This document shows, piece by piece, positions 2,047 to 56,939 of a stretch of DNA of 64,000 nt. This stretch comes from an uncultured virus (IMG/VR IMGVR_UViG_3300000117_000017). Its lineage: Duplodnaviria > Heunggongvirae > Uroviricota > Caudoviricetes. Position 1 is the first letter of the stretch. Each line of letters starts with the position of its first letter. The position numbers and the translations under genes were made by a program. Below the pieces are notes generated by a model, which was not told the DNA's origin, did no database searches, and saw only the letters and a list, made by a program, of their open reading frames with translations. Where the stretch lies: IMG/VR virus record IMGVR_UViG_3300000117_000017; one strand, 5' to 3'.

Positions 2047-2244
2047 TTATCCTCCGAAAATCAATGAATTAAGCAAAGCCTGATTATCGGCAATTGTTGT
2101 TACTTCTGAAGAATCAGTAGAAATTACTAAAACCTGTGCTGAATCGAGTAATCCCGGAACTTCGATAGTTCTATCTATGTTGATTTTATTATCAACTACC
2201 GTGATTGCTTGTCCGAAATCTGCTAATTCTCTTGCTTTTGTCAT
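2047..2244 (-). CDS. Small virion protein
   Basis: MTKARELAD N-terminus typical of phage fibre-associated proteins; late promoter directly upstream. Confidence 0.6.
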   Translation of the reverse strand: MTKARELADFGQAITVVDNKINIDRTIEVPGLLDSAQVLVISTDSSEVTTIADNQALLNSLIFGG

Positions 2245-2249
2245 GTTAC

Positions 2250-2257
2250 TATTTATA
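2250..2257 (-). promoter_or_regulatory. T4-type late promoter TATAAATA
   Basis: Exact consensus on the minus strand, 5 nt upstream of the ATG at 2244. Confidence 0.75.
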
Positions 2258-7222: not shown

Positions 7223-7605
7223 ACTACCATCAATGTCCCGTTAACTGTTATTGTCACACCTGAGTCTACATTAAATGGACCTACTAATAATCCATTACTA
7301 TTTGAATCGATAATGTGGCTTCTCGATAAATTTTTTGGATTTGTTCTCAAATCTGCTGCAATCTTTCCTGTAATTGTAGTTGTTGTTATAATTGTATTTA
7401 TACTGGCTGAGTCTGCAGCATCTTGTCGTAGAGCTATGTATGCAGAGTCAACTTGAAATCCAATAGCTGAATCAATCATAGACTGAGTTGCGGCAGAATC
7501 TGTACCCGCAGTTTGTCTAAATTGAATATAATCAGAATCTATCAAACCTTTTACATGTGTATCAACATTTGTATGTAAGTTGAATGCTTGAATTTTCGTT
7601 GCCAT
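7219..7605 (-). CDS. Virion protein with Asp-Ser-rich repeats
   Basis: Shares TDSxATQxMIDSxIGFQVDSAYIxLRQ with the 1939-aa fibre. Confidence 0.6.
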   Translation of the reverse strand: MATKIQAFNLHTNVDTHVKGLIDSDYIQFRQTAGTDSAATQSMIDSAIGFQVDSAYIALRQDAADSASINTIITTTTITGKIAADLRTNPKNLSRSHIIDSNSNGLLVGPFNVDSGVTITVNGTLMVV

Positions 7606-10600
7606 TATGCAGGTGTCCTTATTTCTCTAAGTTTAAAACTTACATTTGTTTTTGTTGGTTTAAGTTTTAACCTTACATTACCACTATTTATATCCGCATC
7701 AAAAGTACCAAGTGTTGAATCGAGTAATACTTGTCCGTATGTCGTCATGGCTACAGTTGATCCATTATGTGTTAATAATATTTCTTCTGCGTGATAACTA
7801 CTACTTGCATCATGTTCGAGTTGTGCAATATATTTCATTGTTCTAAAACTTGCGGCTGCAAATGTATGAATAACTTGACCTGAATCTGTTGAAGTTAAAT
7901 CAGAATCAATTGCTCTTATTCCATTTATTTCTACAGTTGTTGCTTTAGCGAGTGATACAACTTCTACAATACTTCCTGTACTTACAGCTGAATCAAATAC
8001 AATCGATGTTCCATCAGTTGCAGTAAAATCTTTTCCAGTTGCAAGTCTTGCGCCGTTTAAGTATACTTCTACTTTACCGACATCATATGCCAATGTTGTT
8101 CCAGATGAATCAGCACCACTCACAGAATCCGATAACGCACCTAATGTGTAGAGATAAGGTTTATAATCTCTTAATATTAAGTTAGTAGAATGTAACTGAT
8201 GAGTTCGAACTTCAATTTCAGAAGATGAATCGGGTGCAGAATCAAGTGTTAATGTACTTCCTGATATGCTATATGTATTTGTGTGTTGTAATAGACCATT
8301 GACAAATACAAATGCATCATCAGAATCAGCCGGAGTATCTGTTAATGTAAATACTTTAGTTGAATTATTGCCAGAGAAACTACTTGTTGATACACTGTTA
8401 ATAGTTCCAGTAGTACCACCTCCGCTACCAACAGATGATTGTCTTAATTGAATATAAGCTGAATCAACTTGAAATCCAATTGATGAATCTATCATTGCTT
8501 GTGTTGCAGAAGAATCAGTACCAGATGATATTGTGATAGTTTTTGTTGCGCCAGATCCTGTTGCAGTTACACTGGTACCTACAAAGTTTAACGTTGTTGC
8601 GGCGGTTGATAAAGAAGATCCTTCTTCTTGTACGGTGATTGCACCACCCGATTGTCTAAGTTGAATGTAAGCAGAATCAATTAATTGTATAACTGCAGCA
8701 GAATCGATATTTCCACTTAATGCAGTTACAGAAGCAAATGATAAGTTACCACTACCATCTGTTCTAATTACATGATTATTCAAACCATCAGATGTTGGAA
8801 ATAATAATCCAGCAGCAGTTAATCTTGTAAATTTTGCGGAGTCTGCAGATATTTCACCTGTTACATTTACGCCAGAATCTGTTGTTGCTAATCTTGCAAG
8901 ATTATTAAAGAATAATGATACTGCACCGCCTGATAATGCTGTAATTTGACTTTCAGTACCTGCTGCATTTTGAACTGTTAAGTTATTTGTCTGAAGTTGT
9001 AAAGAACCTGTTCCAGCATCTTGAATTACACTATGACTTCCAGTATGGAATATTTTTAAATCACTATCATTACCGACTGATAATTTAGCTAAACCTCCTG
9101 CAGCTCCTCCATCAGGTGCTTGTATTCCATTAGCATTCATAAGTGTTATTGTTGCAGCAGAATCAGTTCCCGGTGATTGTCTTGCTTGTACATATGCAGA
9201 ATCGATAAGAGCAATTGCTTCTGCAGAATCGATACTTATTGCTTGTACTCTTGCATTTGTATAATAGAGATTAGTTTGTTCAGGAATATCTGCGGTACTT
9301 ACTTGGTTTGTACCTGTACCAAAATCGATATGTGTATCATCTATTCCATCAGCTTTAAGTGTTACTGCTCCTGATGAGACATCAAAGTGATCACTACTAA
9401 AAGATGCGATACCTTTATTAGATGATGTAGCATCTTCACCTGATATAGTACCACCTGATACATCGATACCTTCACCAGCTGCAAGATAACTTGCAACTCT
9501 TGCATCAGTATAATAAAGATTACTTCCTTCAGTTAAGTTTGATGTAGTAAATCCAGTTAAGTTGCGTGTTCCAATTACGAGTGCATGACCCATGTACCCG
9601 TGAGCAGAGCATTGATAATGTAGTACTGGAGGTGTAGCCTCCGTTACTGTGATTCTTGCATATGTTGCTGCAGTTGATACACCGGTAGTGTATTGTGTAG
9701 TTTTTGCTGCATCATAGTAGAATCTAAATGGATGACTTGACATATCACTTGAACTTAAGTTAAACTGATATGTTCTTCCAATTTGTAATTGAATTATTGG
9801 AGAATATGTGCCGTCAATTACGTATTTATTAGTACTACCTTGACCATTATAAACATGATCAGCAGTTTGTGTTGCAACTGTTACAGCAAATTCTTTTGTT
9901 ACTGCTGTATGTTGATTTCGTTCAACCGCAGTATTTGCAGAATCTTTTGCAAAGAAATAATCACTATCAAAGTTTTCTTTTGTATAAACTGATTCAACAT
10001 CAAAGGTAAATTGTCCTGTTCCTGAGTTATATGTTAAATCTCCACCAGCAGAGAATAAACCTCTTATTTCTGATGAATCAACTGAAATATTACCATCTGC
10101 TAAATCGATACCGTGACCACCCGCAAAGTGTGCTCTTACTTCACTTGCATTTGGTCCTGTGTATGTAAATATACCAGTAGCAGAATCATATGAGAAGCTT
10201 CCATCACCACCAGCATCGATTCCTATTAAAGCACTTCTTGCTGCAGAATCTGCTCTTGCCACTGTGTAATAAAGATTAGTTTGTTCTGGAATATCAGCTG
10301 TACTTACTTGATTTGTGCCTGTTCCAAAGTCGATATGAGTATCATCAATACCATCTGCTTTGATTGTAACTGCACCTGATGATACATCAAAATGATCACT
10401 ACTAAAAGAAGCTATACCTTTGTTTGATGCAGTAGCATCTTCTCCAGATATTTCACCAGAAGATATGTCAATACCTTCGCCGGCAGTTATATGAGCTCTT
10501 ACTTCAGAAGCAGAAGGACCAGTGTATGTAAAGATACCAGTTGCAGAATCATAACCGAATGAACCGTCTCCACCTGCGTCAACCGCAACTAGTGCACTTC

Positions 10601-13424
10601 TTGCTGCGCTATCAGCACGAGCTTCCGTGTAGTATAAATTAGTTTGTTCAGGAATATCTGCAGTACTTACTTGATTTGAACCTGTACCGAAGTCAATGTG
10701 TGTATCATCTATTCCATCAGCTTTAATACTTACTGCACCAGATGAAACACTAAAATGTTCTGTATTGAATGACGCTATACCTTTATTAGATGTAGTTGCA
10801 TCTTCACCTGAAATTTCTCCAGATGATATATCAATACCTTCACCAGCTGTGATATGTGCTCTTACTTCTGAAGCACTCGGGCCAGTATATGTAAATATAC
10901 CTGTAGCCGAATCATAACCAAATGATCCATCACCACCTGCATCTACCGCAACTAAAGAACTTCGAGCGGCTGAATCTGCTCGAGCTGTAGTATAATATAA
11001 ATTCGTTCCTTCAGATAAATCAGATGTAGACTTAGCGTTAAAGTCTGAATCAAATCCTAAGAAAGATCCTTGAAATGGTTTATTAAATACAAACTTATCA
11101 CCAGTTGCAGCATATGTTATTGTAGCACCTGCACCATTTATTGTGATACCCGCACCGTCTGCGGCTGCAGCATTTCCAGCAGAATCTGCAAGGACTATAT
11201 TTTTATCATTAATTGAAACTGTAGTTGAATTGATAGTTGTTTGTGTACCTTCAACTTGCAAATTACCAAGAATTTGTACGGTACCGGTATTATCACCAAT
11301 TGCAGCAGGATCAATTACAAAATTAGCAGGACCTCTTAATTGGTTAAATGTAGGATTAGCTGAAGAATCTAATGGTTGAGGAGCTCGTATTTCACCAGTA
11401 CCACTATTATATGTAATACCATTAGTTCCACTAAAATGCGCACGTACTTCTGATGCACTTGGTCCAGTGTATGTAAGAATTCCTGTAGAATTATTATAAG
11501 CTAAACTTCCATCACCACCTGCGTCAGTTACAGTTATGAATCCTCTTATTTGTTGTCTAAATAAGCTTGTAAGTTCTGCAGAATCAATTTTAATATCGCC
11601 GGAAGTAATTGCAATACCAGATCCTCCGGTAAAGTGTGCTCTTACTTCACTTGCATTTGGACCAGTATACGTAAATTGTCCGGTAGCACTATCATATGCA
11701 AAGCTTCCATCACCGCCTGCATCAACAGTATTTAAATAACCTCTTATTGTTTGTCTATATAAACTCGTTAATTCACTTGAATCAATTTTAACATCACCAG
11801 ATGTAATTGCAATACCCGTTCCACCTGTGAAATGAGCTCGTGTTTCGGATGCACTTGGTCCTGTATATGTAAATTTACCTGTAGCAGAATCGTAACTAAA
11901 TGATCCGTCACCTCCAGCATCGATTCCTAATAATGCGCTTCTTGCTGCACTATCAGCTCTTGTGTCAGTATAATATAAGTTAGTTCCTTCAGATAGATTT
12001 GTAGTTGAATTTGCATCAAATGCAGAATCAATATCGGAATCAACTCTTGATTTTAAGTAGTATAGATTAGTGCCTTCCGGCAATTGTCCGGTATTTGCAT
12101 CACCTAAATCAGAATCAAAATTAGCTTTAGTGTAAACCTGTTCTACATCAAATGTAAATTCACCGGTTCCAGAATTATATGTTAAATCACCGCCAGCTGA
12201 AAACATTCCTCTTACAGTTTGTCTATATAAACTTAATAATTCTGCAGAATCAAGTCTTATTACACCTGTTCCGTTATTATATCCAATACCATCGCCACCA
12301 CTGAAATGTGCACGTACTTCAGAAGCTGAAGGTCCGGTATAAGTAAATTTACCAGTTGCAGAATCATAAGTAAAACTACCATCACCACCCGCATCTGTTA
12401 CATTAAGATGAGCTCTTACTTCTGTTGGAGAAGGTCCAGTGTATGTAATTAATCCTGTGACATTGTTATATGTAAATGATCCATCGCCACCTGCATCAAC
12501 TGCACTAATATAACTTCGAATGTCTTGTCTAAAATACGCGGATAATTCTGAAGAATCTATATTGATTGTATCACTTGCTGAATCATAAGCAATACCAGTT
12601 CCACCTGCAAGTGCATCACCTAAATCTGATTCAAAATTATCTCTTGTATAAACTTGTTCTACATCAAATGTAAATTGGCCTGAGCCGGAATTATATGTTA
12701 AATCTCCACCAGCACTAAAATAACCACGAATATCTTGTTTGAAATTTGCTTCTAATTCTGCAGAGTCAATTCTTATTGTATCTGTGGCAGAATCATATGC
12801 TATACCTACGCCACCATCAAGTGCTGAACCTAAGTCTGAGTCAAAATTTGACTTAGTGTAAACTTGTTCTACATCAAACTCAAATCTACCAGATGTAGAG
12901 TCATAACTTAAATCGCCGCCTGAGCTAAAGTAACCTCTTATTTGTTGAATAGATCCTGCTAAATCGATATTTACCGCAGTGCCTGTGCTGTCTTTAACAC
13001 TAAAATCACCGCCGGAATCTTTAAGGTTTATACCTCCAAGATGTATTGTAGATCCACTTAAATATAAATCTCTAAATTTCTTGGCGCTGTCGCCTAAGTC
13101 AAATGAACTATCTAATGTAGGAACAATGTGGCCTTTTGTTGTAAGACCTGTTACAACTGGTGTTTTATCGGAATCTATAGCAATGATTAATTTATCATTA
13201 CCAGGCGAGTATTCTCTTGCTAATCCTTGACCGACATCGAATGTAAAGTTCTTAAATGCTGCTTCAGAAGAATCAAATACGAGTATTTGTCCATCCGATT
13301 TAGTGGATACGTCAAAGTCCGTGAATTCATCGATAGATAGTGTTTCTCTGGCAGTTGTTACTGGAGTTCCGAGTACTATCTTTTTTATGAAGGTCTGTTG
13401 ACCTACTGTTACTTTAATTGACAC
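7605..13424 (-). CDS. Long tail fibre / large repetitive virion protein (1939 aa)
   Basis: Many DAGGDGSFxYDSATGxFTYTGPSASEVRAH and EGTNLYYT repeats; C-terminal FRTMKYIAQL...EEILLTHNG...TYG domain seen in marine T4-like fibres. Confidence 0.8.
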   Translation of the reverse strand: MSIKVTVGQQTFIKKIVLGTPVTTARETLSIDEFTDFDVSTKSDGQILVFDSSEAAFKNFTFDVGQGLAREYSPGNDKLIIAIDSDKTPVVTGLTTKGHIVPTLDSSFDLGDSAKKFRDLYLSGSTIHLGGINLKDSGGDFSVKDSTGTAVNIDLAGSIQQIRGYFSSGGDLSYDSTSGRFEFDVEQVYTKSNFDSDLGSALDGGVGIAYDSATDTIRIDSAELEANFKQDIRGYFSAGGDLTYNSGSGQFTFDVEQVYTRDNFESDLGDALAGGTGIAYDSASDTINIDSSELSAYFRQDIRSYISAVDAGGDGSFTYNNVTGLITYTGPSPTEVRAHLNVTDAGGDGSFTYDSATGKFTYTGPSASEVRAHFSGGDGIGYNNGTGVIRLDSAELLSLYRQTVRGMFSAGGDLTYNSGTGEFTFDVEQVYTKANFDSDLGDANTGQLPEGTNLYYLKSRVDSDIDSAFDANSTTNLSEGTNLYYTDTRADSAARSALLGIDAGGDGSFSYDSATGKFTYTGPSASETRAHFTGGTGIAITSGDVKIDSSELTSLYRQTIRGYLNTVDAGGDGSFAYDSATGQFTYTGPNASEVRAHFTGGSGIAITSGDIKIDSAELTSLFRQQIRGFITVTDAGGDGSLAYNNSTGILTYTGPSASEVRAHFSGTNGITYNSGTGEIRAPQPLDSSANPTFNQLRGPANFVIDPAAIGDNTGTVQILGNLQVEGTQTTINSTTVSINDKNIVLADSAGNAAAADGAGITINGAGATITYAATGDKFVFNKPFQGSFLGFDSDFNAKSTSDLSEGTNLYYTTARADSAARSSLVAVDAGGDGSFGYDSATGIFTYTGPSASEVRAHITAGEGIDISSGEISGEDATTSNKGIASFNTEHFSVSSGAVSIKADGIDDTHIDFGTGSNQVSTADIPEQTNLYYTEARADSAARSALVAVDAGGDGSFGYDSATGIFTYTGPSASEVRAHITAGEGIDISSGEISGEDATASNKGIASFSSDHFDVSSGAVTIKADGIDDTHIDFGTGTNQVSTADIPEQTNLYYTVARADSAARSALIGIDAGGDGSFSYDSATGIFTYTGPNASEVRAHFAGGHGIDLADGNISVDSSEIRGLFSAGGDLTYNSGTGQFTFDVESVYTKENFDSDYFFAKDSANTAVERNQHTAVTKEFAVTVATQTADHVYNGQGSTNKYVIDGTYSPIIQLQIGRTYQFNLSSSDMSSHPFRFYYDAAKTTQYTTGVSTAATYARITVTEATPPVLHYQCSAHGYMGHALVIGTRNLTGFTTSNLTEGSNLYYTDARVASYLAAGEGIDVSGGTISGEDATSSNKGIASFSSDHFDVSSGAVTLKADGIDDTHIDFGTGTNQVSTADIPEQTNLYYTNARVQAISIDSAEAIALIDSAYVQARQSPGTDSAATITLMNANGIQAPDGGAAGGLAKLSVGNDSDLKIFHTGSHSVIQDAGTGSLQLQTNNLTVQNAAGTESQITALSGGAVSLFFNNLARLATTDSGVNVTGEISADSAKFTRLTAAGLLFPTSDGLNNHVIRTDGSGNLSFASVTALSGNIDSAAVIQLIDSAYIQLRQSGGAITVQEEGSSLSTAATTLNFVGTSVTATGSGATKTITISSGTDSSATQAMIDSSIGFQVDSAYIQLRQSSVGSGGGTTGTINSVSTSSFSGNNSTKVFTLTDTPADSDDAFVFVNGLLQHTNTYSISGSTLTLDSAPDSSSEIEVRTHQLHSTNLILRDYKPYLYTLGALSDSVSGADSSGTTLAYDVGKVEVYLNGARLATGKDFTATDGTSIVFDSAVSTGSIVEVVSLAKATTVEINGIRAIDSDLTSTDSGQVIHTFAAASFRTMKYIAQLEHDASSSYHAEEILLTHNGSTVAMTTYGQVLLDSTLGTFDADINSGNVRLKLKPTKTNVSFKLREIRTPA
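10130..11010. repeat. Internal tandem repeat of about 363 bp (121 aa) in the long fibre
   Basis: RADSAARS block recurs at about 10249, 10612 and 10975; a further partial copy lies at about 9250-9480. Confidence 0.8.
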
Positions 13425-13435
13425 TACTCATTACC

Positions 13436-13789
13436 TCACTTAGTAACTGATGGAGTTATTTGTACCCTGCCTTCGAGAATTCTTTCAATAATTGTGTTAC
13501 CGCTAGCACTATCAACATTGGATAATTCTACATCATATACGTGTCTGCCTGCTTTTAAAGCATCAGTTTGTGTGTTAGTGAGTGATAATGTTGCTATTCC
13601 GCCAGAAGAATTAGTTACTACACTAGTAAATGCAATTGCTTCGCCAGCACTGTCATTATAGTTTTTCTTAAGTCTTGCTGTTAATGTGTGACCCGTAAGA
13701 TTTTTTGCTGTACCATTTTTATCTACTAAATGTAGTTCTATGGTTGCGTCAGATCCTTGATCTATTGTGAACTCTTGATATGTGGCCAT
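13436..13789 (-). CDS. BppU-N-like fibre/baseplate adaptor protein
   Basis: IDQGSD...LSLTNTQT.AL.AGRHVYDVEL...RILEG.V.ITPSVT pattern. Confidence 0.6.
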   Translation of the reverse strand: MATYQEFTIDQGSDATIELHLVDKNGTAKNLTGHTLTARLKKNYNDSAGEAIAFTSVVTNSSGGIATLSLTNTQTDALKAGRHVYDVELSNVDSASGNTIIERILEGRVQITPSVTK

Positions 13790-13843
13790 GAAATACTCCG
13801 GTTGATTTCTTTGTCGGACGATATCGCCCCTGCCATTTTAAAC

Positions 13844-13880
13844 TATTTATACAAATTAAGTTTTATAAGTGTTATAAATA
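13844..13880. promoter_or_regulatory. Back-to-back T4-type late promoters
   Basis: TATAAATA on the minus strand at 13844-13851 (fibre operon) and on the plus strand at 13873-13880 (glycosyltransferase island). Confidence 0.75.
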
Positions 13881-13885
13881 AATTT

Positions 13886-14437
13886 ATGAATATTATATTA
13901 TTAAAACACGGTACTAAATATAGTGCTGATGATGTAAATGAAATTTATCATTCTCTAAAAGATTATACTTCTGCAAATTTTTATTGTTTCACTGAAGATA
14001 AAACAAATGTAATTATAGATTGCATTGACATTCCAAAGAAACCTAAACTTATGAGGTGGTGGAATAAAATGCATTTATTTAGAGAAGACTTTGAAATAGA
14101 AGGTAAGTGCGTATTATTTGATCTAGATATCAAAATACTTTCCGATCCATTCCCATATATAAACAATATTGACTGGAACTACCCTACATTCATGAGAGAC
14201 GGTTGGAAAAAAGATAAGTTCTTTAGCGAGCATGCATATGATACAGAATTAAATAGCTCAGTTCTTGCTTGGACGTCTAAACAAAATTCTTATATTTGGA
14301 ATATCTTTAGTAAAAACATAGATTACCATACACGAAAATATAAAGGAATTGACAGATTTTTTTGGCATGAAAAGATACAGTGGAGAAACTTTGACAATGG
14401 AATATATAACACCATCGATGTATCGAAAGATACTTAA
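13886..14437 (+). CDS. Glycosyltransferase-like protein (GT-A, DxD)
   Basis: KHGTKYS..DV, FYCFTED, WWNKMHLF, VLFDLDI, LNSSVLAW motifs; start moved to the ATG just after the late promoter. Confidence 0.7.
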   Translation: MNIILLKHGTKYSADDVNEIYHSLKDYTSANFYCFTEDKTNVIIDCIDIPKKPKLMRWWNKMHLFREDFEIEGKCVLFDLDIKILSDPFPYINNIDWNYPTFMRDGWKKDKFFSEHAYDTELNSSVLAWTSKQNSYIWNIFSKNIDYHTRKYKGIDRFFWHEKIQWRNFDNGIYNTIDVSKDT

Positions 14438-15041
14438 TATTATAACTGACATCTATACTACGACAACTTACGATAAAGAATCTTTTGGAGGCGATTTATT
14501 TAGACTTAAAGATGTACTCGATTCTTTTAGTGAGGGTCAAATTATGAATAAAGTGTGGGCAGTAGAAGAATTAAATAAGTTAATTGACAGTGAATACAAA
14601 GAATGCGTGGTAATAGGAAGCTGGTATGGTTTGTTCTCACATTTGTTCGCTGAATCTGGATTTAAAAATAAAATACTTAACATAGAATTAGATGAAGTTT
14701 GTAATAAGATTGCGCGAAAATTAAGGATGCACGATAATATTCATTTTAAAACAATAGATGGTTTAGAAGACTTTTTAAATCATAATTATTATGATAGAAT
14801 ACTCGTGTGCACAGCGTGCGAACACATAGACGATGAAGAACTATCTTTTGTTTTACAACAAAAACATCCAAACATGATAGTTTGTTTACAATCTAATAAT
14901 TATTATGAAGTTGATAGCCATATTAACTGTAAAGATAATTTAGAAGATTTTATAAAAAGCATTTCTTTAAAAAACGTATTATATTCTGGAACAAAGAGAC
15001 ACAAAGATGAATACGATAGATTTATGATAATCGGCAAATGA
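14397..15041 (+). CDS. Class I SAM-dependent methyltransferase-like protein
   Basis: VVIGSWYG glycine loop, NIELD acidic motif, CTACEHI; GGAG RBS upstream of ATG 14397. Confidence 0.65.
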   Translation: MEYITPSMYRKILNIITDIYTTTTYDKESFGGDLFRLKDVLDSFSEGQIMNKVWAVEELNKLIDSEYKECVVIGSWYGLFSHLFAESGFKNKILNIELDEVCNKIARKLRMHDNIHFKTIDGLEDFLNHNYYDRILVCTACEHIDDEELSFVLQQKHPNMIVCLQSNNYYEVDSHINCKDNLEDFIKSISLKNVLYSGTKRHKDEYDRFMIIGK

Positions 15042-15937
15042 GAGTTATATTTAGCATTTACATAGATTTTAATAATGATGACTTTGAGGAAGATCATGAT
15101 TATCAAAAAAATATTAAAAATAAAAATGAATTTAAAAACAATTATAATTTTTTAAAACATAAACAAGAGAACTACGCTCGTAAATTAGGTATAACCTATA
15201 TATTATATGAAGACGACGAGAAGTGGAGAGCTTACAGAAAACACTTTGAAGATAATTATCCTTTTATCTCTAAGTACAATATAATTAATTTTTATAAAAT
15301 ACATATCATGTATGATTTATGCAAAACTTATGATGAAATACTGTACATTGATTTTGATGTAGTGCCATTAACTCAAGATAATATTTTTGACAACATAGAC
15401 GTTGCAAATGGTATTGCTTGCAAAGTTAATCATGAAAGAAATCCAGAAAGTTATTTGACTTTCTTAAGTCCTAAGATTATTAAAGAAAGAGAGAAAGCTT
15501 TTTTAAAAACTGGTAGAACTTTTTCTGAACGAGATCCTAAAGCTAAATATTGGAACTGTAGAGCTTTACTAATGGAAGAAGGACTAAGTGGTAACAATGA
15601 TGTATATAATACTGGAATTGTTTTAGCGAATAAAGATAATTTAAAAAAATTAAATTATTTTAAAAATTTTAATGACACCTTAGAATTTATGCACAGAATA
15701 AAAAATGAAGAAGGATTTTGGCCTAAGTTTATACAAAATTGTTTTGGATACGATAACGAAACATTATTTAGCTTTAAGATGAAAATTAATAATGTCAACT
15801 TAATAGAACTAGATGATGTTTGGCATTTTCCTTACAGAAAAAAAATTAATTATATACCTAAAGAAACTAAATTCGTGCACGCAATTAACAAGAATTTTAA
15901 ATTTATTAAAGCATATGCCAAAAAATATCATTTATAG
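15038..15937 (+). CDS. Glycosyltransferase (GT8/GT34-like GT-A fold)
   Basis: K...YDEILYIDFDVV (DxD), YNTGIV, DNETLFS, WH...KFVH motifs. Confidence 0.75.
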   Translation: MRVIFSIYIDFNNDDFEEDHDYQKNIKNKNEFKNNYNFLKHKQENYARKLGITYILYEDDEKWRAYRKHFEDNYPFISKYNIINFYKIHIMYDLCKTYDEILYIDFDVVPLTQDNIFDNIDVANGIACKVNHERNPESYLTFLSPKIIKEREKAFLKTGRTFSERDPKAKYWNCRALLMEEGLSGNNDVYNTGIVLANKDNLKKLNYFKNFNDTLEFMHRIKNEEGFWPKFIQNCFGYDNETLFSFKMKINNVNLIELDDVWHFPYRKKINYIPKETKFVHAINKNFKFIKAYAKKYHL

Positions 15938-16712
15938 TATATGGTCAGATTTAACAGAACAACATTCATCTGTAAATGATTATAAAAAAGAATCAATTAA
16001 AAAATACAAAGAAAAGTTAATTGAATTGCAAAAGAATTATGCATACTTTTGTAAAGCTGATTATGAAGTATTTACGCCTAAGTCAACAGATTACACGAAC
16101 GTTCAGTTCGATAAGATATTTAAGCTTGAAGAACTTACTAAGTACTATGACAACGTAGTATATTTTGACATGGATATAGTTCCTATTACTAAAAAAAATA
16201 TATTTAAAAGTTTTAACTTTAATAAAATTGGCGTGTACGATTATACTGTAAAAATAAATAATAGGGAAACCATAAAGCACATATCAGAAACTACTAAAGA
16301 TAAAAAATGTATTTCTCCTATGATGATGTATTCTAAAGTTTGTGCTAAGAACGCCATGTTGATGATAGACGATATAATTGGAAATGAAAATATTGTCAAC
16401 ACTGGTGTAGTATGCGCAAATAAAAAATCTGCAGAAGAACTATCTTTTACAGAAAGAATGAATGATATGAATAAAAAATTAAGTATTGCTATTAACGATA
16501 ATTTATATCCAGAGTTAATGTCAAAAGCGTGGATAAAAAATAATGAAGTTTATCTTTCTTATCTTTTAGAAAGATACAACATAGATTTTAATAATATAGG
16601 AATACAATGGAATTATATTTTAGACGATATCGTAACTAAAGTAACGTCTGGCGTACATTTAATACACCAAGTAAATAAGGATTTTCATGAAACAATCTCT
16701 AGACTCAAGTAA
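15915..16712 (+). CDS. Glycosyltransferase, paralogue of 15038..15937
   Basis: YDNVVYFDMDIV, VNTGVV, NNEVYLS, QWN...LIHQVNK. Confidence 0.75.
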   Translation: MPKNIIYSIWSDLTEQHSSVNDYKKESIKKYKEKLIELQKNYAYFCKADYEVFTPKSTDYTNVQFDKIFKLEELTKYYDNVVYFDMDIVPITKKNIFKSFNFNKIGVYDYTVKINNRETIKHISETTKDKKCISPMMMYSKVCAKNAMLMIDDIIGNENIVNTGVVCANKKSAEELSFTERMNDMNKKLSIAINDNLYPELMSKAWIKNNEVYLSYLLERYNIDFNNIGIQWNYILDDIVTKVTSGVHLIHQVNKDFHETISRLK

Positions 16713-17832
16713 ATTTAAAAGTTGGAGACCATATTATAATATAGTTTTAGACACAACGACGTATTGTAACGCAAAATGTCCTCAATGTCATAGAATAAAC
16801 TCTACTGAAGGCGCAAAGTTATCTTTTACTGGGAATGTAATAAAAGAACTTCCATTGATACACGTGCCTTTTGAAAAAATAAAAAAGACGTTTACTCAAC
16901 AAGAACTATTAAAATATCATTCTATACAACTTTGTCCTACATGGGGAGATCACATGATGCATCCTCACGCTGCTGAGATTGTGGAACATTTCTTAAGTTC
17001 TAGTTGGCGTATAATAGTTACTATAAACACTAATGGAAGCATGAGAGATGAATTATATTGGTGGAAACTTTGTTCTTTGGCGATAAAACATAAATCACGA
17101 TATCATAGTAAAAGACTACACATTGTTTTTGCAGTAGATGGTATCGATCAAGATATGCACGGTCTTTATAGAAGAAATACTAATCTACAAAAAGTGTTAG
17201 ACCACGTAAAGATATGTTCCGAGTTTAAAGAAACAGTTCTAGTTGAAACTCAGACCGTATTATTTAAGCACAATCAAGACTACTTAGAAGAAATTACTAA
17301 GTTATGTAAAGAACACGGAGCTGAAAAACATTCGTCAGTTATAAGTGATAGGTTTGGTGAAGACGATCCACAAGTTGAAAATCGTAACGTATACACTTTT
17401 TACGATGAGAACAACACAAAACTAAGTTTAAATAAAGTGACTGAAGATTGGACAGATGAATTTAAAAAACGTGGAGCTCAAATAAACAGAACTACAATAG
17501 CAGATTTAGATAATAAACCAACTTGTGGCTGGTCGTTAACTAATACGTTAAATATTAATTTTGATGGAAACGTCTGGCCGTGTTGTTTTTTTGGAAACTT
17601 TTCTGTTATGAACAAGAAAAGCTGGATGAAGCAACACCCTTTTGCTCGAAAGTATTACGATTATAATAACAATATTTATGAAAATAAATTAGAAGATATA
17701 CTAAAAAATGATTGGTGGAAAGAGTTACCTTACGTAATACAATCTGAGAATCCAATAAGAAACTGTGTTTACAGCTGTTCAAATAAGTATAAAGAAGGCC
17801 AGTTTAGATTAACTCATAGACAACGCGATTAA
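16687..17832 (+). CDS. Radical SAM enzyme with SPASM/twitch domain
   Basis: CNAKCPQC (CxxxCxxC), INTNGS, AVDG, and C-terminal C...DGNVWPCC...CxxxC. Confidence 0.85.
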   Translation: MKQSLDSSKFKSWRPYYNIVLDTTTYCNAKCPQCHRINSTEGAKLSFTGNVIKELPLIHVPFEKIKKTFTQQELLKYHSIQLCPTWGDHMMHPHAAEIVEHFLSSSWRIIVTINTNGSMRDELYWWKLCSLAIKHKSRYHSKRLHIVFAVDGIDQDMHGLYRRNTNLQKVLDHVKICSEFKETVLVETQTVLFKHNQDYLEEITKLCKEHGAEKHSSVISDRFGEDDPQVENRNVYTFYDENNTKLSLNKVTEDWTDEFKKRGAQINRTTIADLDNKPTCGWSLTNTLNINFDGNVWPCCFFGNFSVMNKKSWMKQHPFARKYYDYNNNIYENKLEDILKNDWWKELPYVIQSENPIRNCVYSCSNKYKEGQFRLTHRQRD

Positions 17833-18288
17833 TGTGGCTTCTTTAATAGTCTTTGCTTGTCTCAATTCTTTTTTCTTACTTGCCTTTGTAGATTTTTTAA
17901 TAGCAGGTGTCTCGAATAATTGCAGTTTGTAAAGAAATAGTTTTTCTTTATCTCTTTCTGCGTCAAACTCATTAAATAAAAATTGAGCTAAAGCTTTATG
18001 AACATCAGTGTGTTGCTCATTAAAATCGTATATTAATCCTCTATCTTTTGCCAGTGTGATAACAGTATCTTCAAATGCTTCATGCTGTTCTCTAATATGT
18101 TTGTACGTTGCTTCGTGCAAGTTATCAATATCAATATGAGTTAATAGATTTTCAAAATTAGGATCACCTTCTTTAGCTTCAATGTATTCAACTCTTTCTA
18201 CTTTCCCATCAGTCCAAAACGATTCAACTATTGTTCTTTCGTTATTTGAAAAATGTGCTCTTACAAATTCATGTCCAGGGATTGCCAT
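17809..18288 (-). CDS. Hypothetical protein
   Basis: 159-aa ORF with AGGAG RBS at the end of the minus-strand structural operon. Confidence 0.6.
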   Translation of the reverse strand: MAIPGHEFVRAHFSNNERTIVESFWTDGKVERVEYIEAKEGDPNFENLLTHIDIDNLHEATYKHIREQHEAFEDTVITLAKDRGLIYDFNEQHTDVHKALAQFLFNEFDAERDKEKLFLYKLQLFETPAIKKSTKASKKKELRQAKTIKEATLIALSMS

Positions 18289-18290
18289 AA

Positions 18291-19214
18291 TTAACTCCTT
18301 GCAATTTTTAAAAAGTATGTACTTACAGTTTGTGCTGTACCATTAGGAAATTCTTGAGTACGATAATCATTGGCATTCACAAACCTTGTTTGATAATTTC
18401 CTGCTCCGTCAAGACGTGTATCTACCATACCAGTCCCTCTATTAGCTCCGCTTCCATTTATAGAATAAGTAATTCTAGAACCTGCAGTGTTTACTGTATG
18501 ATGTCTCATTTCAGCTAATAACATTGCATCAAGATTAGCATCAGTATATATTTGTAAATCATTACCACTCGTTATTTGCAGAGGTGATTGAAAACTTGTA
18601 GCAACAGTTTGATTAGTTCGAAATAAATAGTAGTTAGTTATTGTCGTAGGTTGATCTTGTGTTTCACCAATTCCGCCTGCAGTATAAGCCGATACATTTG
18701 CTATTGTGTCAGTAAAAACGGGGGTTGAAGATATTAAAGTGTTAAGAGATAAAGAAGTTGCAGTATGTATTCTAAACGTACCACCTCTGTCATTTCCATC
18801 AACTAGCGTACCTATAGCAGCATTTATAATAGTATCAAACACATCAGTAGCGCTCATGGCTCTTATATCTGTGCCGTCGTAGTACACAGGATAGAATTTA
18901 TTATTAGTGTCTGTAGGAGTGCTTACGCTTGAATTAGCTTGATTTATCTTATCATAAACTATTGGAGTTACTTGAGAAACATTAGGAGTCTCGCCGGCCG
19001 TATCAAAATTAGTAACATCTGTTGTGGATGCACCAGCTTGCATTCTGGTATCTGACATACTGTCCAAACTTCCAGAACTTCCAACAACTGTAAGTAGAGC
19101 AGAAGGATTAGATCCATAAACATAAACGGCTCGCTGTTGTAAGTCTAACAGCTGTGCCGAAGACATTTCTTGAAGACTGCTTCCATCCCAATATAAAGGA
19201 CTTACAACCGCCAT
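18291..19214 (-). CDS. Virion structural protein with internal repeat
   Basis: P(L/V)YxDG..(L/I)xxMS repeated; T/S-rich; in the structural operon. Confidence 0.6.
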   Translation of the reverse strand: MAVVSPLYWDGSSLQEMSSAQLLDLQQRAVYVYGSNPSALLTVVGSSGSLDSMSDTRMQAGASTTDVTNFDTAGETPNVSQVTPIVYDKINQANSSVSTPTDTNNKFYPVYYDGTDIRAMSATDVFDTIINAAIGTLVDGNDRGGTFRIHTATSLSLNTLISSTPVFTDTIANVSAYTAGGIGETQDQPTTITNYYLFRTNQTVATSFQSPLQITSGNDLQIYTDANLDAMLLAEMRHHTVNTAGSRITYSINGSGANRGTGMVDTRLDGAGNYQTRFVNANDYRTQEFPNGTAQTVSTYFLKIARS

Positions 19215-21612: not shown

Positions 21613-24600
21613 TTAACTCGCCTTTTTTAATAATTGTTTATATTGGCCATGAACTGTGTAAATGTTATTGTTACAATACACATCAAAGCTTTCATTAGTT
21701 GTTCCTATATAAACTGTAGGAATAATTTTTTCAATAAAATCTATGGTTTCTACTTTTACGCCATTTATATAGTTACCAATTTCAACCTCTTCTGTTCTCT
21801 TCCAACCTAAGTTAGTTAAAACAGGGTGATCATTAGTTATTTTTAATTCATTATTAATTATGTAATAAGCATTTCTCATGTGTTTTTGCATAACCTCTGT
21901 CACTAAGCTTCCAGAAACAATATCTCCTACTTTAACATTTACCACTGTCGATAACACACCATTCAACATTACTAACATATCTTCTAATAGACATGCCACA
22001 CCATAACCGTTATCATCAGTATAACCGTGTTCATCACCATTCATGCCGCCGCCAGGACCATCGTCTTGATTATTATTAGTATAGGTAGGTATACCTAAGT
22101 GCACACCTACTTTAGATGCAATGGCGTTATTGATTGCATTGATTGCATTTGAGTGTGACAGGTACCCAGATTTTGGTGCTGGATCGGTATAGTTTAGCCC
22201 ATATCCATTTGCATCAGCATAATTGCTAAATTGTTGATCAATTAAGCCTAAACTCACTACGGCTGTAGCTAAGTTAACACCCCAATCATCAGTGACTGGT
22301 GATTTATGGTCTCCACCCTCGTTATATGATATTAAACCTCCAGTTTGCACTATGACTCGAGTAGACTCATATGTAGCTTGTTTAGTGTCTAAAAACCCTT
22401 GCGAAGTGTAGTTAGTTGAAGCCATTGCTGCAGCATCAGTCTCTTTGTCTACACTTATATCTAACACTTTAAATTCTCTAGTTCCAGTTCGTATTCTAGT
22501 TGTATCATTGTTTGGCACTATAAATGATCCAGAAACTGTTCCATTTGCATCTGTAACGAGTGTTGAAGATCCTGATGGGTGTATTGTTACATCACTTAGT
22601 GTATTACCAAAATCAGAATCTGTGTCTGAATAATGTTGGAACAAAGTAGGACCGCCGCCACCGTTTGTTAAGCTTGTAATATTGACTCCGTCTAAGAAAG
22701 TAAATACTCGTGTATTAGGTCTTAAACCTTCAGCTCTAAAATAAACTTTTCTTGATCTCATAAAATTTGCTGTTGTAGTTTCAATAATTCTATCATTTAC
22801 TATATTCAACAACGTTTCTCCAGTTGCAACTGCAGGAACAGCATCTTTACCACTATTTCCAGCCCAGTTTGCGATGTGATCATTAAATTGATAAGCGGGT
22901 ATAGGTGAAATAAGAGTGCCTCCTTGAATTATCTTGTCAGGAACTCTTTCTACATCTCTCCATTCATCAGAAGAAGGTGACAGTGTAATTGTTCCTTCAT
23001 ATATAGTAACTGAAAACGGATTAACTTTAACAGCTTTACTTGCTGTTGTCTGATTTATGTATTCACTTTGATCATACTTTATATAAACGTTATCACCTCT
23101 TTTTATAGTGTTAGTAGATGATGCTGAATCATATGTTAATCGTATTTGATCATGTCTTGTCATAGGCCTTACTACTCGATTTGTAAAATCAGTTGAAGCT
23201 CTATATTCATACGGCACTGACATTTCTGCACCGCGATGATCTTTAAATGCATCTACAAAAAAGCCACTCTTAGTTCTATCATTTCCAGAAGAATCTAAAA
23301 CTTGTAAATATTTAGTATCAGTTTCTAATAAATTTAATGTAGTTGTTTCTTCAAGTCTCTCTACTCTGTTTTCTAATTTACCTATATCTTTCATAGTAAA
23401 TCTTTTAAAATTGTATTTTGATAAAGACACGTCAGAATCATTTAGTACACCAGGATTCATTATTATATCATATAATGGTAAACTACCATCTGGAGTTACA
23501 GGCAAAATCGGATTAAATCCAGGAGCTCCGAATACAAAATCTAATTTTGAGTTTTTATCTATGACTAGTTTTGCTGGAGTAGCTAAATTGTAAGTAACAT
23601 CTGCAGTTATAGTGCTTCCATCTTGAGGAGTTTCTAACATAGTTGCACCACTGGTATTAAAGTTTCCAGCAGAATCTGATACTGACCTAAAATCTATGAC
23701 ATCTCTTAAATTTATTAACTGGCCTCCACCTAAATTATAATTAGGTATTTTATCATAATCAACTTGACCAGCATACGAATTTACAGAAAAGTAATCTCCA
23801 CCGCCAGTTGGATCAAAGAATTTGTATTTCATAGAAACACTTCCAGACGGCGCCGATTGACCTGATCTTAATATTAGTCTACCAACATCATAATGTGATG
23901 GGCGTTGACCGTTGTCAACAATAAACCTCGTTGCATAGCTTTCATTACTGTCAGATGCATTAACAATTTCATCTACTTCATAAATATCTGCACGTTTCAT
24001 ATTAACAAATTTAAAACCTGCACCATCTGATTCAACAGTATTTGTTAAAGTCATATTTGTCAATGTTTTAGTTTTAGGAGTTGTTTGTGTTTTACTTACA
24101 AATGCTGCGAGTTCTATATTAGAAGAACTTGAAATAGTTGCAACATCTGCAGCTGTTCCAAAGTTTGCAGTACCACCTGTTGGTGCTGAAGCACTAGGTG
24201 TTAAAGAATATGAAGGTGTAGCTGCCGATACATCACTATCTGCCTTTGCAAAAACAAAATCACCTGTCTGTGTATAAATTTCTCCAGCTGTTGTTAATCC
24301 CGTAAGTGTTACTACACCCGAACCATTTGCAGACAGAGTTGGAAATCTTCTTTGAGCTGTGTAAGTTAAATCTGATAGAGCTGTAGGCCTTGGATTAGGT
24401 AATGAGAAAAAATTATATTTTTCATAAGGTTCTTTTAGTACACCTTTAGAGTTTTCAAGTGTAATATTAAAAAAGTTACTAGTAGATGTGCCTATACTTT
24501 TGACATCTCTAAAAACTTCGCCAGAATTAAGATTAATATCTATGAGATGCATTTTTAAATTAGTACCACTTTTAGTTATTGCTTTAACTCGTGCTGTACC

Positions 24601-25827
24601 AATTGTACTTCCACCATGCGTGACAGCTGATCTTAAATTCATTTCTTCTAATTGATTGAAGTTTGGTATACCTTTTGTTTTTCCTAAACCGCTATGTGCC
24701 ACATCTACAAATACATATGCTCCATGAGTTGCACCCACTGGTTCGTTGTTTACAGTGGTCGTTACAGCTGGTTTTGTTATTCTAAAGGTTGAAGGTTTTG
24801 TTACAATTGATCTAAAACCTCTAACCACTGCAACACCGTCACTAACATTTAAAAGTAAATGTGTGTTTTGTGAATCTAAGTCAAATCTAGCAGAGAAAGG
24901 TTTGACTATATAATCACCAGAATTCTCTTCTATTCTCTTTGCAATAAGTTCATTAGGTATATTATATGAATTTGTTGTGGCAACTGCACTATATATCTGA
25001 CCTTTTTTAATTGTTGCAACATGAACAAAGTTATCACTTGATGTCATTTCACTACGTTCAGCTATTGTAAGCGTTATACGATATCTATCAGCGCCTGGAG
25101 CAGAAACATTCGGAACACTTCCTTGATTATCGTATAATGCATTGTTATCACTTGCAGTTACAACGTCTTCAACTGTTTTAAATCCGATATCAGTATCTGG
25201 TATATCAGTATATTTTGATATTATCTTAGATTGATCTTGAGTTAATACAAAATTACCTCTTACATAATATATACCGCCTAAAGCCGTAACTTGTGTTCCT
25301 TTTCCAGTTGATGGATCTGCTATTGTAGAAAGTTTTACTTTTAAATCAGTTCCGTCTGACACATCCATTACTTCGTTACCAGACATTCGTTGTGTTACAA
25401 CATCAGTGCTGCCTTGAGCTGAACTTGTGTTTGTGTACTTAACATAAAGAGTTGCAGGATCACTGCCTACTGCAGCAACCACTTCTAGTATTGTTGCAAC
25501 TATTGATGAAGTTTGCCCTGTTACAGTTTTACCTACAAGTGTTGTTATATCTGTTGGTAAAACATGCGATGGATCAGTTGTATCGAGTTTTATAAATTCA
25601 TATTGAGGATTTACATTTACTCCGCCTGGTTTTACTACAGCACCTTCTTTAAATACGTTATTACCAAATCTTTCTATTTGACTTTGCAATATCGTTTGAA
25701 GTTGTGTTAACTCTCTTGCTTGTAATCCAACACCTGTATTGAATAATATTCTATGATAGTTATCACTATCACGAAAATCATCTTTATATGTGGTTGCTAA
25801 ACTGGTTTCTGTGAATGTTGTCGCCAT
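21613..25827 (-). CDS. N-terminal half of VrlC/DUF4815-like structural protein with C-terminal Hint domain
   Basis: YHRILF..G..LQARELTQLQTILQ, APGADRY, RFTMKDIGKLE.RV..LE, KSGFFVD.F motifs; Hint blocks in the last ~126 aa. Confidence 0.8.
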   Translation of the reverse strand: MATTFTETSLATTYKDDFRDSDNYHRILFNTGVGLQARELTQLQTILQSQIERFGNNVFKEGAVVKPGGVNVNPQYEFIKLDTTDPSHVLPTDITTLVGKTVTGQTSSIVATILEVVAAVGSDPATLYVKYTNTSSAQGSTDVVTQRMSGNEVMDVSDGTDLKVKLSTIADPSTGKGTQVTALGGIYYVRGNFVLTQDQSKIISKYTDIPDTDIGFKTVEDVVTASDNNALYDNQGSVPNVSAPGADRYRITLTIAERSEMTSSDNFVHVATIKKGQIYSAVATTNSYNIPNELIAKRIEENSGDYIVKPFSARFDLDSQNTHLLLNVSDGVAVVRGFRSIVTKPSTFRITKPAVTTTVNNEPVGATHGAYVFVDVAHSGLGKTKGIPNFNQLEEMNLRSAVTHGGSTIGTARVKAITKSGTNLKMHLIDINLNSGEVFRDVKSIGTSTSNFFNITLENSKGVLKEPYEKYNFFSLPNPRPTALSDLTYTAQRRFPTLSANGSGVVTLTGLTTAGEIYTQTGDFVFAKADSDVSAATPSYSLTPSASAPTGGTANFGTAADVATISSSSNIELAAFVSKTQTTPKTKTLTNMTLTNTVESDGAGFKFVNMKRADIYEVDEIVNASDSNESYATRFIVDNGQRPSHYDVGRLILRSGQSAPSGSVSMKYKFFDPTGGGDYFSVNSYAGQVDYDKIPNYNLGGGQLINLRDVIDFRSVSDSAGNFNTSGATMLETPQDGSTITADVTYNLATPAKLVIDKNSKLDFVFGAPGFNPILPVTPDGSLPLYDIIMNPGVLNDSDVSLSKYNFKRFTMKDIGKLENRVERLEETTTLNLLETDTKYLQVLDSSGNDRTKSGFFVDAFKDHRGAEMSVPYEYRASTDFTNRVVRPMTRHDQIRLTYDSASSTNTIKRGDNVYIKYDQSEYINQTTASKAVKVNPFSVTIYEGTITLSPSSDEWRDVERVPDKIIQGGTLISPIPAYQFNDHIANWAGNSGKDAVPAVATGETLLNIVNDRIIETTTANFMRSRKVYFRAEGLRPNTRVFTFLDGVNITSLTNGGGGPTLFQHYSDTDSDFGNTLSDVTIHPSGSSTLVTDANGTVSGSFIVPNNDTTRIRTGTREFKVLDISVDKETDAAAMASTNYTSQGFLDTKQATYESTRVIVQTGGLISYNEGGDHKSPVTDDWGVNLATAVVSLGLIDQQFSNYADANGYGLNYTDPAPKSGYLSHSNAINAINNAIASKVGVHLGIPTYTNNNQDDGPGGGMNGDEHGYTDDNGYGVACLLEDMLVMLNGVLSTVVNVKVGDIVSGSLVTEVMQKHMRNAYYIINNELKITNDHPVLTNLGWKRTEEVEIGNYINGVKVETIDFIEKIIPTVYIGTTNESFDVYCNNNIYTVHGQYKQLLKKAS

Positions 25828-28173: not shown

Positions 28174-28181
28174 TATTTATA
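28174..28181 (-). promoter_or_regulatory. T4-type late promoter TATAAATA
   Basis: Intergenic exact consensus; context TTCTATTTATACATAAAAA identical to the site at 31533. Confidence 0.8.
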
Positions 28182-31532: not shown

Positions 31533-31540
31533 TATTTATA
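31533..31540 (-). promoter_or_regulatory. T4-type late promoter TATAAATA
   Basis: Intergenic exact consensus upstream of gp25. Confidence 0.8.
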
Positions 31541-40351: not shown

Positions 40352-40359
40352 TATTTATA
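40352..40359 (-). promoter_or_regulatory. T4-type late promoter TATAAATA
   Basis: Exact consensus in the divergent gp48/gp4 intergenic region. Confidence 0.75.
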
Positions 40360-40872: not shown

Positions 40873-40875
40873 ATA
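40868..40875 (+). promoter_or_regulatory. T4-type late promoter TATAAATA
   Basis: Exact consensus 5 nt before the gp2 ATG. Confidence 0.75.
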
Positions 40876-40880
40876 GTCTT

Positions 40881-56864: not shown

Positions 56865-56939
56865 AAATATATTTATTAGTTAACATGTTATTTACACTAA
56901 TATAAACTTGTCTTTTATTTACTGTCAGGTTTTTGACAC

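Follow-up and report, generated by a model that had tools for sequence, protein, structure and literature searches.

Gene sets of the general kind reported here have already been described for pelagimyophages. According to the available part of the study by Zaragoza-Solas et al. 2020 (PMC7029224), the pelagimyophage host recognition cluster runs from VrlC to gp14 and holds tail fibres together with GT8 glycosyltransferases and radical S-adenosylmethionine (SAM) cassettes. The available text of PMC12801897 reads cyanomyovirus glycosyltransferase (GT) clusters as host-surface or DNA modification, and virion glycosylation is not proposed in what is available of either paper. In mycobacteriophages Che8, Corndog and Myrna, phage GTs glycosylate the phage's own capsid and tail-tube proteins, as stated in the accessible portion of a citing paper (PMC12363180). 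Here we analyse a stretch of 64,000 nucleotides from an uncultured virus (IMG/VR record IMGVR_UViG_3300000117_000017; hereafter the window, meaning the whole stretch), in which a cassette of five plus-strand genes, g1 to g5, lies between a tail-fibre operon on one side and two minus-strand genes, h159 and h307, on the other.

We propose that g1-g5 form a translationally coupled operon of soluble cytoplasmic enzymes that would build a tailored glycan. In this scheme, g1, g3 and g4 would add sugars from host nucleotide-sugars, g2 would modify the sugar, and g5 would carry out a further radical tailoring step. The operon would be read from a T4-type late promoter abutting the g1 start codon, and production of the enzymes would therefore coincide with that of the tail and fibre proteins. 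As acceptor, a neighbouring virion or structural-module protein (h307, h159 or the fibres) would be the likeliest, giving glycosylated virion parts. Judging from the sequence, we give an even chance to the reading of the cassette as a late-read, glycan-building operon of five genes that acts on a virion or structural protein; the more specific version, in which it glycosylates h307 or the fibres with a methylated, radical-SAM-tailored glycan, seems to us somewhat less probable than that.

A compact operon of five overlapping genes

Between 294 and 40315, all open reading frames (ORFs) of at least 100 aa lie on the minus strand except the five plus-strand ORFs g1-g5 (13757/13886 to 17832), which break the run, and two shadow ORFs. 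A first-pass annotation, made by a model from the letters of this DNA, had noticed five overlapping plus-strand genes interrupting about 40 kb of minus-strand structural genes; our ORF map agrees, with refined starts placing the five at 13886-17832 and with the interrupted genes being those of tail, fibre and baseplate. The true starts were set by ortholog alignments, that of g4 from its orthologs in two related contigs (L005 and L008). The first gene, g1 (13886-14437, +, 183 aa), is a predicted GT-A, GT8-like glycosyltransferase. It is followed by g2 (14397-15041, +, 214 aa), a protein of predicted class I SAM-methyltransferase fold, and then by a second predicted GT-A, GT8-like glycosyltransferase, g3 (15038-15937, +, 299 aa), and its putative GT8-like paralogue g4 (15915-16712, +, 265 aa). 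The last gene, g5 (16687-17832, +, 381 aa), encodes a predicted radical SAM enzyme. The g1/g2, g2/g3, g3/g4 and g4/g5 overlaps measure 41, 4, 23 and 26 nt, and none of the five proteins has a membrane segment (the 19-residue Kyte-Doolittle mean peaks at 0.96).

For comparison, 80 viral contigs with a g3 relative were reduced to 61 distinct g3 sequences of 40-100% identity, and locus counts below are given per 61. Databases hold 49 relatives of g1, 908 of g2, 651 of g3 and 216 of g5, and g4 has orthologs in 48 of the 61 distinct loci; because of these numerous relatives, all five island ORFs are real genes. The 3' end of g5 overlaps by 24 nt the convergent gene h159 (17809-18288, -), whose acidic 159-aa product matches no family in Pfam or PHROG. 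Next to it lies h307 (18291-19214, -), a 307-aa protein of the structural operon and a candidate acceptor, for which neither a Pfam, PHROG or PDB match nor a profile match against the PDB at E <= 10 was obtained, and which falls only in unnamed viral clusters of the ESM Atlas.

Three predicted glycosyltransferases

The g1 protein matches the glycosyltransferase family phrog_1962 (E 1.3e-6). Its AlphaFold2 (AF2) model, with a predicted local distance difference test (pLDDT) value of 88.8, finds LgtC as the best Foldseek match (4e-7), followed by GlyE, UGGT, LARGE1, glycogenin and PBCV-1 A64R (template modelling (TM) scores 0.49-0.64), and the g1 profile matches glycogenin weakly (E 0.2). D79, L80 and D81 are invariant across 19 g1-family sequences. 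For g3, no Pfam or PHROG family match was found, and its profile gave nothing at E <= 1 against PDB sequences. The AF2 model of g3 (pLDDT 91.4) has top PDB matches that are all GT-A (LARGE1, XXYLT1, LgtC, A64R, UGGT and GT6, with LgtC fourth-ranked; probability 1.00, TM 0.35-0.46, Foldseek E-values 5e-6 to 1e-4), and in BFVD it finds GT8/GT34 proteins of cyanophages and giant viruses. D105 and D107 are invariant across 24 g3-family sequences, nine of which match PF01501 (GT8) at E <= 0.01 (best 2.6e-7).

The paralogy of g4 with g3 is seen in cross-matches of 24-28% identity (E 1e-11 to 1e-23), from which we infer a GT-A fold for g4 as well; the g4 ortholog of L008 scores above the PF01501 cut-off (25.8 vs 24.3 bits). 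A DxD motif is present in all three proteins, as D79-L-D81 in g1, D105-x-D107 in g3 and within FDMDIVP in g4. The models and motifs support the prediction that g1, g3 and g4 are retaining-type GT-A, GT8-like glycosyltransferases, as the first-pass annotation had claimed in counting three GTs, and the GT-A fold that had been set beforehand as a test in structure prediction is retained in the g1 and g3 models. A closer kinship between g1 and g3 was considered and ruled out by an hhalign probability of 2.5%, and the two are thus separate GT-A lineages.

These folds bear on the possibility that the GTs modify phage DNA bases, as in the glucosyl-hydroxymethylcytosine of T4, and so evade restriction. 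Phage GTs are classically DNA-modifying, and PMC12801897, in its available part, lists this possibility for cyanophage GTs. Against it, g1 and g3 have GT-A, GT8-like folds, and no hydroxymethylase-type gene was seen among the 47 window proteins scanned besides the island and three neighbours. The alpha- and beta-glucosyltransferases of T4, in contrast, are GT-B enzymes. With the late-promoter context described below, which does not fit this role either, we regard DNA modification as very improbable, and the same view had been taken in the first-pass annotation.

The methyltransferase-like protein g2 and the predicted radical SAM enzyme g5

Single-sequence matches of g2 to Pfam and NCBIfam methyltransferases are weak and all below cut-off. 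A family profile of 30 members, searched against the PDB, finds the methyltransferase 3dtn (E 4.7e-5) and 3mgg (0.006), and then spermidine synthases, which share the methyltransferase fold of g2. The motif I position reads G-(G/S)-W-Y-G, compared with the canonical GxGxG, and W76, Y77 and G78 are invariant or nearly so. In the ESM Atlas g2 falls in unnamed viral clusters, and the nearest named families are methyltransferases (Methyltransf_31 on 21% of the members of one viral cluster). The family profile supports g2 as a methyltransferase-like enzyme of predicted class I fold and bears out its initial labelling as a methyltransferase.

In g5, the N-terminal CX3CX2C motif (C27, C31, C34) is invariant across 20 family sequences. 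Pfam reports Radical_SAM PF04055 at 1.7e-6 (28.7 bits vs a cut-off of 29.5) and SPASM PF13186 at 3.5e-5 (24.4 vs 21.5), and the protein matches phrog_21308 with E 1.4e-23. Its 216 relatives carry PF04055/PF13186, most of them with PF04055. A full SPASM domain has a seven-Cys motif that binds two auxiliary 4Fe-4S clusters. The C-terminal domain of g5 keeps five invariant Cys in the pattern CX13GX4CC...CX3C and does not have the seven-Cys set, which points to one auxiliary cluster and thus to a twitch-like, reduced form rather than a full SPASM domain. Neither the sequence nor the profile of g5 found anything better than E 0.15 in the PDB, and it has no close solved structure there. The motif and the above-cut-off PF13186 match support g5 as a predicted radical SAM enzyme with a reduced SPASM/twitch-like domain, so the radical SAM/SPASM label of the first-pass annotation stands. 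Split forms are common among g5 relatives; in L008 the gene is divided into a core gene and a SPASM gene.

A 387-aa radical SAM gene occupies the g5 position in L005 (5166-6329, +). It belongs to phrog_14086, matches Pfam Radical_SAM at 1e-11 and has an N-terminal Cys-rich region; unrelated to g5, it is a non-orthologous replacement.

SPASM-type domains are typical of peptide maturases. This raises a second possibility, that the enzymes produce a small molecule carrying sugar and methyl groups instead of a polymer of the virion or envelope, or else modify a peptide, in the manner of ribosomally synthesized and post-translationally modified peptides (RiPPs), with g5 acting on a peptide or a free sugar. 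The best NCBIfam neighbours of g5 are indeed maturases, all far under cut-off, and in the available text of PMC12801897 cyanophage radical SAM and aminosugar genes are read as antibiotic-like synthesis. The tightly overlapping operon, however, leaves no space for a precursor-peptide ORF, g5 keeps five auxiliary Cys instead of seven, and the constant linkage of the cassette to structural-module genes would be left unexplained. Such a product is therefore improbable in our judgement, with a better chance than DNA modification.

Late-promoter boxes and probable expression timing

The motif TATAAATA is the T4 gp55-type late promoter, and in T4 the DNA-modifying enzymes are made before replication. 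The window has an exact TATAAATA box at 13873-13880 (+), a T4-type late-promoter consensus that ends 5 nt short of the g1 ATG, and a second one, TATAAATA(G), at 13844-13851 (-), 54 nt before the LtfC-like gene (13436-13789, -) that heads the divergent operon of the 1939-aa fibre. The two stand back-to-back, 21 bp apart, in the 96-bp gap between the gene starts at 13789(-) and 13886(+). No sigma-70-like site was found in this gap (13790-13886). The first-pass annotation had claimed a T4-type late box back-to-back with that of the fibre operon, and the position from which it began the island, 13844, is the minus-strand box. Both copies prove to be exact and conserved in relatives: L003 and L005 keep TATAAATA, 5 nt and the g1 ATG as in the window, the gap being retained where g1-g4 are 59-89% identical, and the minus-strand box is kept in L003, L005 and L008, that is, even in a clade at 43% identity.

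The raw number of TATAAATA boxes is not enriched (16 in the window vs 11.5 +/- 3.3 expected; 15 of 100 shuffles reach 16). Their placement is uneven, since 6 of the 16 fall in the 8.2% of the window outside a curated list of 60 genes (binomial P = 0.0012), all six within the structural half. Among 59 evaluable distinct loci, an exact TATAAATA-N5-ATG precedes the leading cassette gene in seven, namely the clade of the window and L053, where the leading gene is g3, not g1. In six of the 61 loci, g2 and g1 are embedded on the structural strand between h159 and h307. Pelagibacter phage Mosig, the nearest cultured relative, has an annotated "sigma factor for late transcription". Considering the conserved TATAAATA-N5-ATG together with the presence of g1, g2 and g5 inside the structural operon of relatives, the cassette is probably expressed late, which is the timing best supported by box geometry and operon embedding. 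A terminator scan of the window gave 4 sites against 1.8 +/- 1.2 expected, none of them 3' of g5 on the plus strand.

The spacing of the g1 box recurs elsewhere. ATAAATA-N5-ATG occurs four times in the window (1.07 +/- 1.04 expected; 4 of 100 shuffles reach 4), at 2242-2256(-), 13874-13888(+), 40869-40883(+) and 56862-56876(-), and all four coincide with gene starts, at 2244(-), 13886(+), 40881(+) and 56864(-). These belong to a 65-aa fibre-like ORF (2047-2244), g1, the gp2-like gene at 40881 and a 118-aa gene (56508-56864). The T4 late box spans -13 to -6. With such spacing, a box 5 nt from the start codon would put transcription start on the A of the ATG, and this lineage may thus start several late mRNAs exactly at AUG, as leaderless messages. 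Our literature search found no earlier report of such leaderless late messages from marine T4-like phages.

Two further observations concern late boxes and leaders. Three intergenic late boxes lie 5' of baseplate genes, at 28174-28181(-), 31533-31540(-) and 40352-40359(-), with leaders of 20-36 nt and a shared extended consensus consisting of a T-rich run, TG/GT and TATAAATAGAA. The extended TATAAATAGAA consensus and the exact TATAAATA boxes may help to predict late promoters in this group of phages; such prediction failed in pelagimyophages, according to the available part of PMC7029224. The leader of the LtfC-like gene (13790-13843, -) is strongly conserved, with equivalents in L003, L005 and L008, and contains a small GGGCG...CGUCC hairpin whose loop varies by lineage; its folding energy is no better than that of shuffles (z -1.2 to +0.9).

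Conservation of the cassette and its partner genes

The cassette keeps constant company. g4 adjoins g3 in 48/61 loci, h159 lies convergent downstream of g3 in 52/61 (48 of the 54 where that side is covered by 5 kb or more), and h307 is present in 52/61. g2 is found in 50/61, g1 in 33/61 and some radical SAM gene in 42/61; 21 loci have all five families, and 19 have g1-g2-g3-g4 in the order of the window. Arrangements vary. In 32 loci g2 is immediately upstream on the same strand, and in 10 it is upstream but divergent; 8 loci have it on the structural strand, between h159 and h307, and six of these also have g1 next to it. Loci of the L008 type carry g1, g2 and g5 on the same strand directly downstream of h307, and in L093 h307 is followed by co-directional g5, g1, g2 and two g3-like genes. 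L008 also has, at 8505-9904(-) in the 43% clade, two extra minus-strand genes between the LtfC-like gene and g3; the 165-aa product matches phrog_274 (DNA endonuclease V, E 4e-6), and the 301-aa product has no family.

Natural fusions join g1-like to g2-like domains (P0313, P0392), radical SAM to g2-like (P0431) and GT25 to g2-like (P0429). Considering that all four gene junctions overlap, that such fusions occur, and that another radical SAM gene replaces g5 at its position in L005, we infer that g1-g5 act in one shared pathway.

Among 50,697 phage records, g3, h159 and h307 share one phyletic pattern, being found in Mosig only. Its g2-like (Mosig_00090) and g3-like (Mosig_00091) genes belong to a larger island that also contains radical SAM genes as well as genes for a carbamoyltransferase, an epimerase and a sugar aminotransferase, and this island adjoins the homologues of h159 (Mosig_00095) and h307 (Mosig_00097) and VrlC. 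A search of 185,579 prokaryote species genomes gave at least five g3 relatives, confirmed among 600 candidate stretches, all on contigs of metagenome-assembled genomes (MAGs). Among the five contigs listed, four have other cassette genes beside g3 and two have h307, one of them also with h159 and h527, a companion gene described below. Thus, among the matches listed, the cassette family occurs on phage-like contigs only. As constant partners or neighbours of the cassette, h159, h307 and the fibres are the obvious candidate acceptors.

This pattern also bears on a third possibility, that the cassette remodels a host envelope glycan, such as the lipopolysaccharide (LPS) O-chain or the capsule, and thereby keeps competing phages from adsorbing, or progeny from being lost on cell debris. 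The available part of PMC7029224, where GT8 is the commonest pelagimyophage GT family, favours host O-chain modification, and that of PMC12801897 assumes likewise for cyanomyovirus GT clusters. An LPS galactosyltransferase, LgtC, ranks first among the structural matches of g1 and fourth among those of g3, the GT25 domain fused to one g2 relative is an "LPS biosynthesis" domain, and the Mosig island, with its aminotransferase, epimerase and carbamoyltransferase, resembles O-antigen clusters. On the other hand, the matches listed include no recent host-derived copies. The cassette is also better conserved than the fibre (g1 is 84-89% identical where the neighbouring fibre aligns at 33-62%), which is unexpected if it tracks hypervariable host surfaces. 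Superinfection exclusion also fits poorly with a late promoter and a position inside the structural operon, and the cassette has no membrane proteins, flippase or ligase. We therefore consider envelope remodelling unlikely, giving it about half the weight of virion or structural-protein glycosylation.

Base composition and age of the cassette

The GC content is 24-31% over 13750-16749, compared with 35-41% in the fibre gene (500-nt windows), so the AT-richness noted in the first-pass annotation is real; as a sign of a foreign island, it does not hold. GC content at third codon positions (GC3) is 0.20-0.26 in the island genes and 0.13-0.23 in the flanking genes, and is thus not lower in the island. 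The encoded proteins differ in makeup: K+N+I+Y+F amount to 32-48% and G+A to 5-6% in the island enzymes, compared with 21-23% and 16-21% in the fibre, LtfC-like and h307 proteins. Because GC3 is not below that of the flanks and the amino-acid makeup differs, the low GC of the island is the amino-acid composition of enzymes as against fibre proteins and is no mark of foreign DNA. Horizontal transfer was considered as the source of the low GC and is ruled out by GC3 values equal to or above those of the flanks.

The claim that the genes had been inserted among the tail genes is likewise not sustained, since 61 distinct viral contigs share the position down to 40% identity, linked to h159 and h307. 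Given this conserved place and linkage, and the restriction to phage-like contigs among the matches listed, the sequence comparison identifies the cassette as a rearranging module of the structural region that is old and phage-specific, and not as a recent insertion.

Genomic context

The LtfC-like gene encodes a 117-aa beta-sandwich protein that matches phrog_1084 (2e-22), phrog_3304 (L-shaped tail fibre assembly, 2e-15) and, weakly, Pfam LtfC. Behind it, the tail-fibre gene (7605-13424, -) encodes a repetitive protein of 1939 aa that matches phrog_30742 (tail fibre protein, E 2.6e-34). It has many internal repeats, for example recurring DAGGDGSF.Y...TG.FTYTGPSASEVRAH units, and in metagenome contigs 376-685 nt are skipped where one repeat unit is joined to another, which may reflect variants in copy number or a collapsed assembly. 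A PHROG scan of the window identified tail-fibre genes, a VrlC-like giant baseplate protein (21613-25827) with a 527-aa companion (h527), baseplate wedge/hub genes (gp6, gp25, gp5, gp48 and gp53 types), gp2/gp3-type head closure, gp32 and ribonucleotide reductase. The gp6 homologue reaches no more than 42% identity with any of the 50,697 phage records, the best being Phage C48C1, followed by OM43/SAR11 myophages at 32-38%. By this gene content and these gp6 matches, the window is from an uncultured marine T4-like myovirus of pelagimyophage/cyanomyophage type. Megablast found no close DNA relatives of the window among the same phage records, and the island, whole or partial, is present in seawater metagenomes of 15 studies.

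Two genes at the right end of the window have the PHROG families phrog_3041 and phrog_395 ("cytidyltransferase") and phrog_455. The gene at 59404-60594(-) is labelled "cytidyltransferase" by PHROG and has nothing in Pfam, and that at 61490-62719(-) matches only Pfam DUF6267. The PHROG label may be unreliable, and the nucleotide-sugar genes that the label at 59404-60594 suggested were rejected for lack of Pfam support.

Candidate acceptors and implications

Among the structural neighbours of g1 and g3 are enzymes of GT8 type that act on proteins (glycogenin, GlyE, XXYLT1, UGGT) and a PBCV-1 capsid glycosyltransferase. Several points weigh against a virion or structural protein as the acceptor, or against parts of the scheme. 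The LPS enzyme LgtC is also among these neighbours, and because protein-directed enzymes and LgtC occur side by side, the fold does not decide the acceptor. The available part of PMC7029224 reads such cassettes as host O-chain modification, and this cassette has no nucleotide-sugar synthesis genes. h159 and h307 have no recognisable family or fold in our searches, and their virion membership is putative. The window's own g1, g3 and g4 match no Pfam GT family, g1 and g3 lack profile-profile similarity, and the Pfam scores of g2 and g5 are partly under the curated cut-offs. As to timing, the exact TATAAATA box is confined to the seven of 59 evaluable loci mentioned above; in a further clade, TATA-like boxes (ATATATA, ATAGATA) stand 4-5 nt ahead of the ATG, and no box is seen in the remaining loci. 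No sequencing run certain to be RNA contains the locus; two possible RNA runs and two metatranscriptome runs yielded only short contigs of relatives, with no signal for timing, strand or transcript start.

Some of the most abundant viruses are phages that infect SAR11-type and other streamlined marine bacteria, and the host recognition clusters of these phages are rich in GT and radical SAM genes. If virion glycosylation is true, the tail or fibre proteins of this abundant group of marine T4-like phages, whose hosts are Gram-negative, would be glycosylated, which is unreported for the group, and the "LPS-like" genes of pelagimyophage host recognition clusters could be reread as virion-decoration genes. 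This would change annotation, as such genes are now counted as LPS or auxiliary metabolic genes, and it would bear on how marine phages adsorb, on their host range and on the stickiness of their particles. The cultured relative Mosig makes the question of virion or host envelope directly testable.

Comparison with known systems

The closest counterpart is the pelagimyophage/cyanomyophage host recognition cluster. As far as the available text of PMC7029224 goes, it resembles the island in its position downstream of VrlC among tail fibres, in its GT8 and radical SAM enzyme types and in its marine T4-like lineage; it differs in that its genes are described collectively and assigned to host O-chain modification. 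The present analysis adds a resolved five-gene cassette with h159 and h307 as its partners, the classes into which its rearrangements fall and an exact late-promoter box, together with a correction of the AT-rich insertion reading and a testable virion-glycosylation hypothesis.

Gtr-type O-antigen glucosylation (GtrA/B/C) is carried out by a membrane-embedded flippase and transferases. The island is of a different build, with no hydrophobic 19-residue segment in g1-g5 (maximum Kyte-Doolittle mean 0.96). The alpha- and beta-glucosyltransferases of T4 are, like the island enzymes, GTs of a T4-type phage. They have a GT-B fold, are expressed early and act on DNA, whereas the island combines a predicted GT-A fold with a late-promoter context and a location in the structural module.

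Virion glycosylation in mycobacteriophages involves another host phylum and another phage type, and it is demonstrated there and hypothesised here. PBCV-1 A064R has three domains, a GT, a second GT and a methyltransferase. Capsid glycosyltransferase chains of this chlorovirus rank among the best structural matches for both g3 and g1, and the logic of GT, GT and methyltransferase is paralleled by the natural g1-g2 fusions. With 10-14% identity and TM scores of 0.40-0.56, the similarity to g1 and g3 is at fold level only. A064R belongs to a eukaryotic virus, has no radical SAM partner and has a proven acceptor, whereas the acceptors named for the island are candidates.

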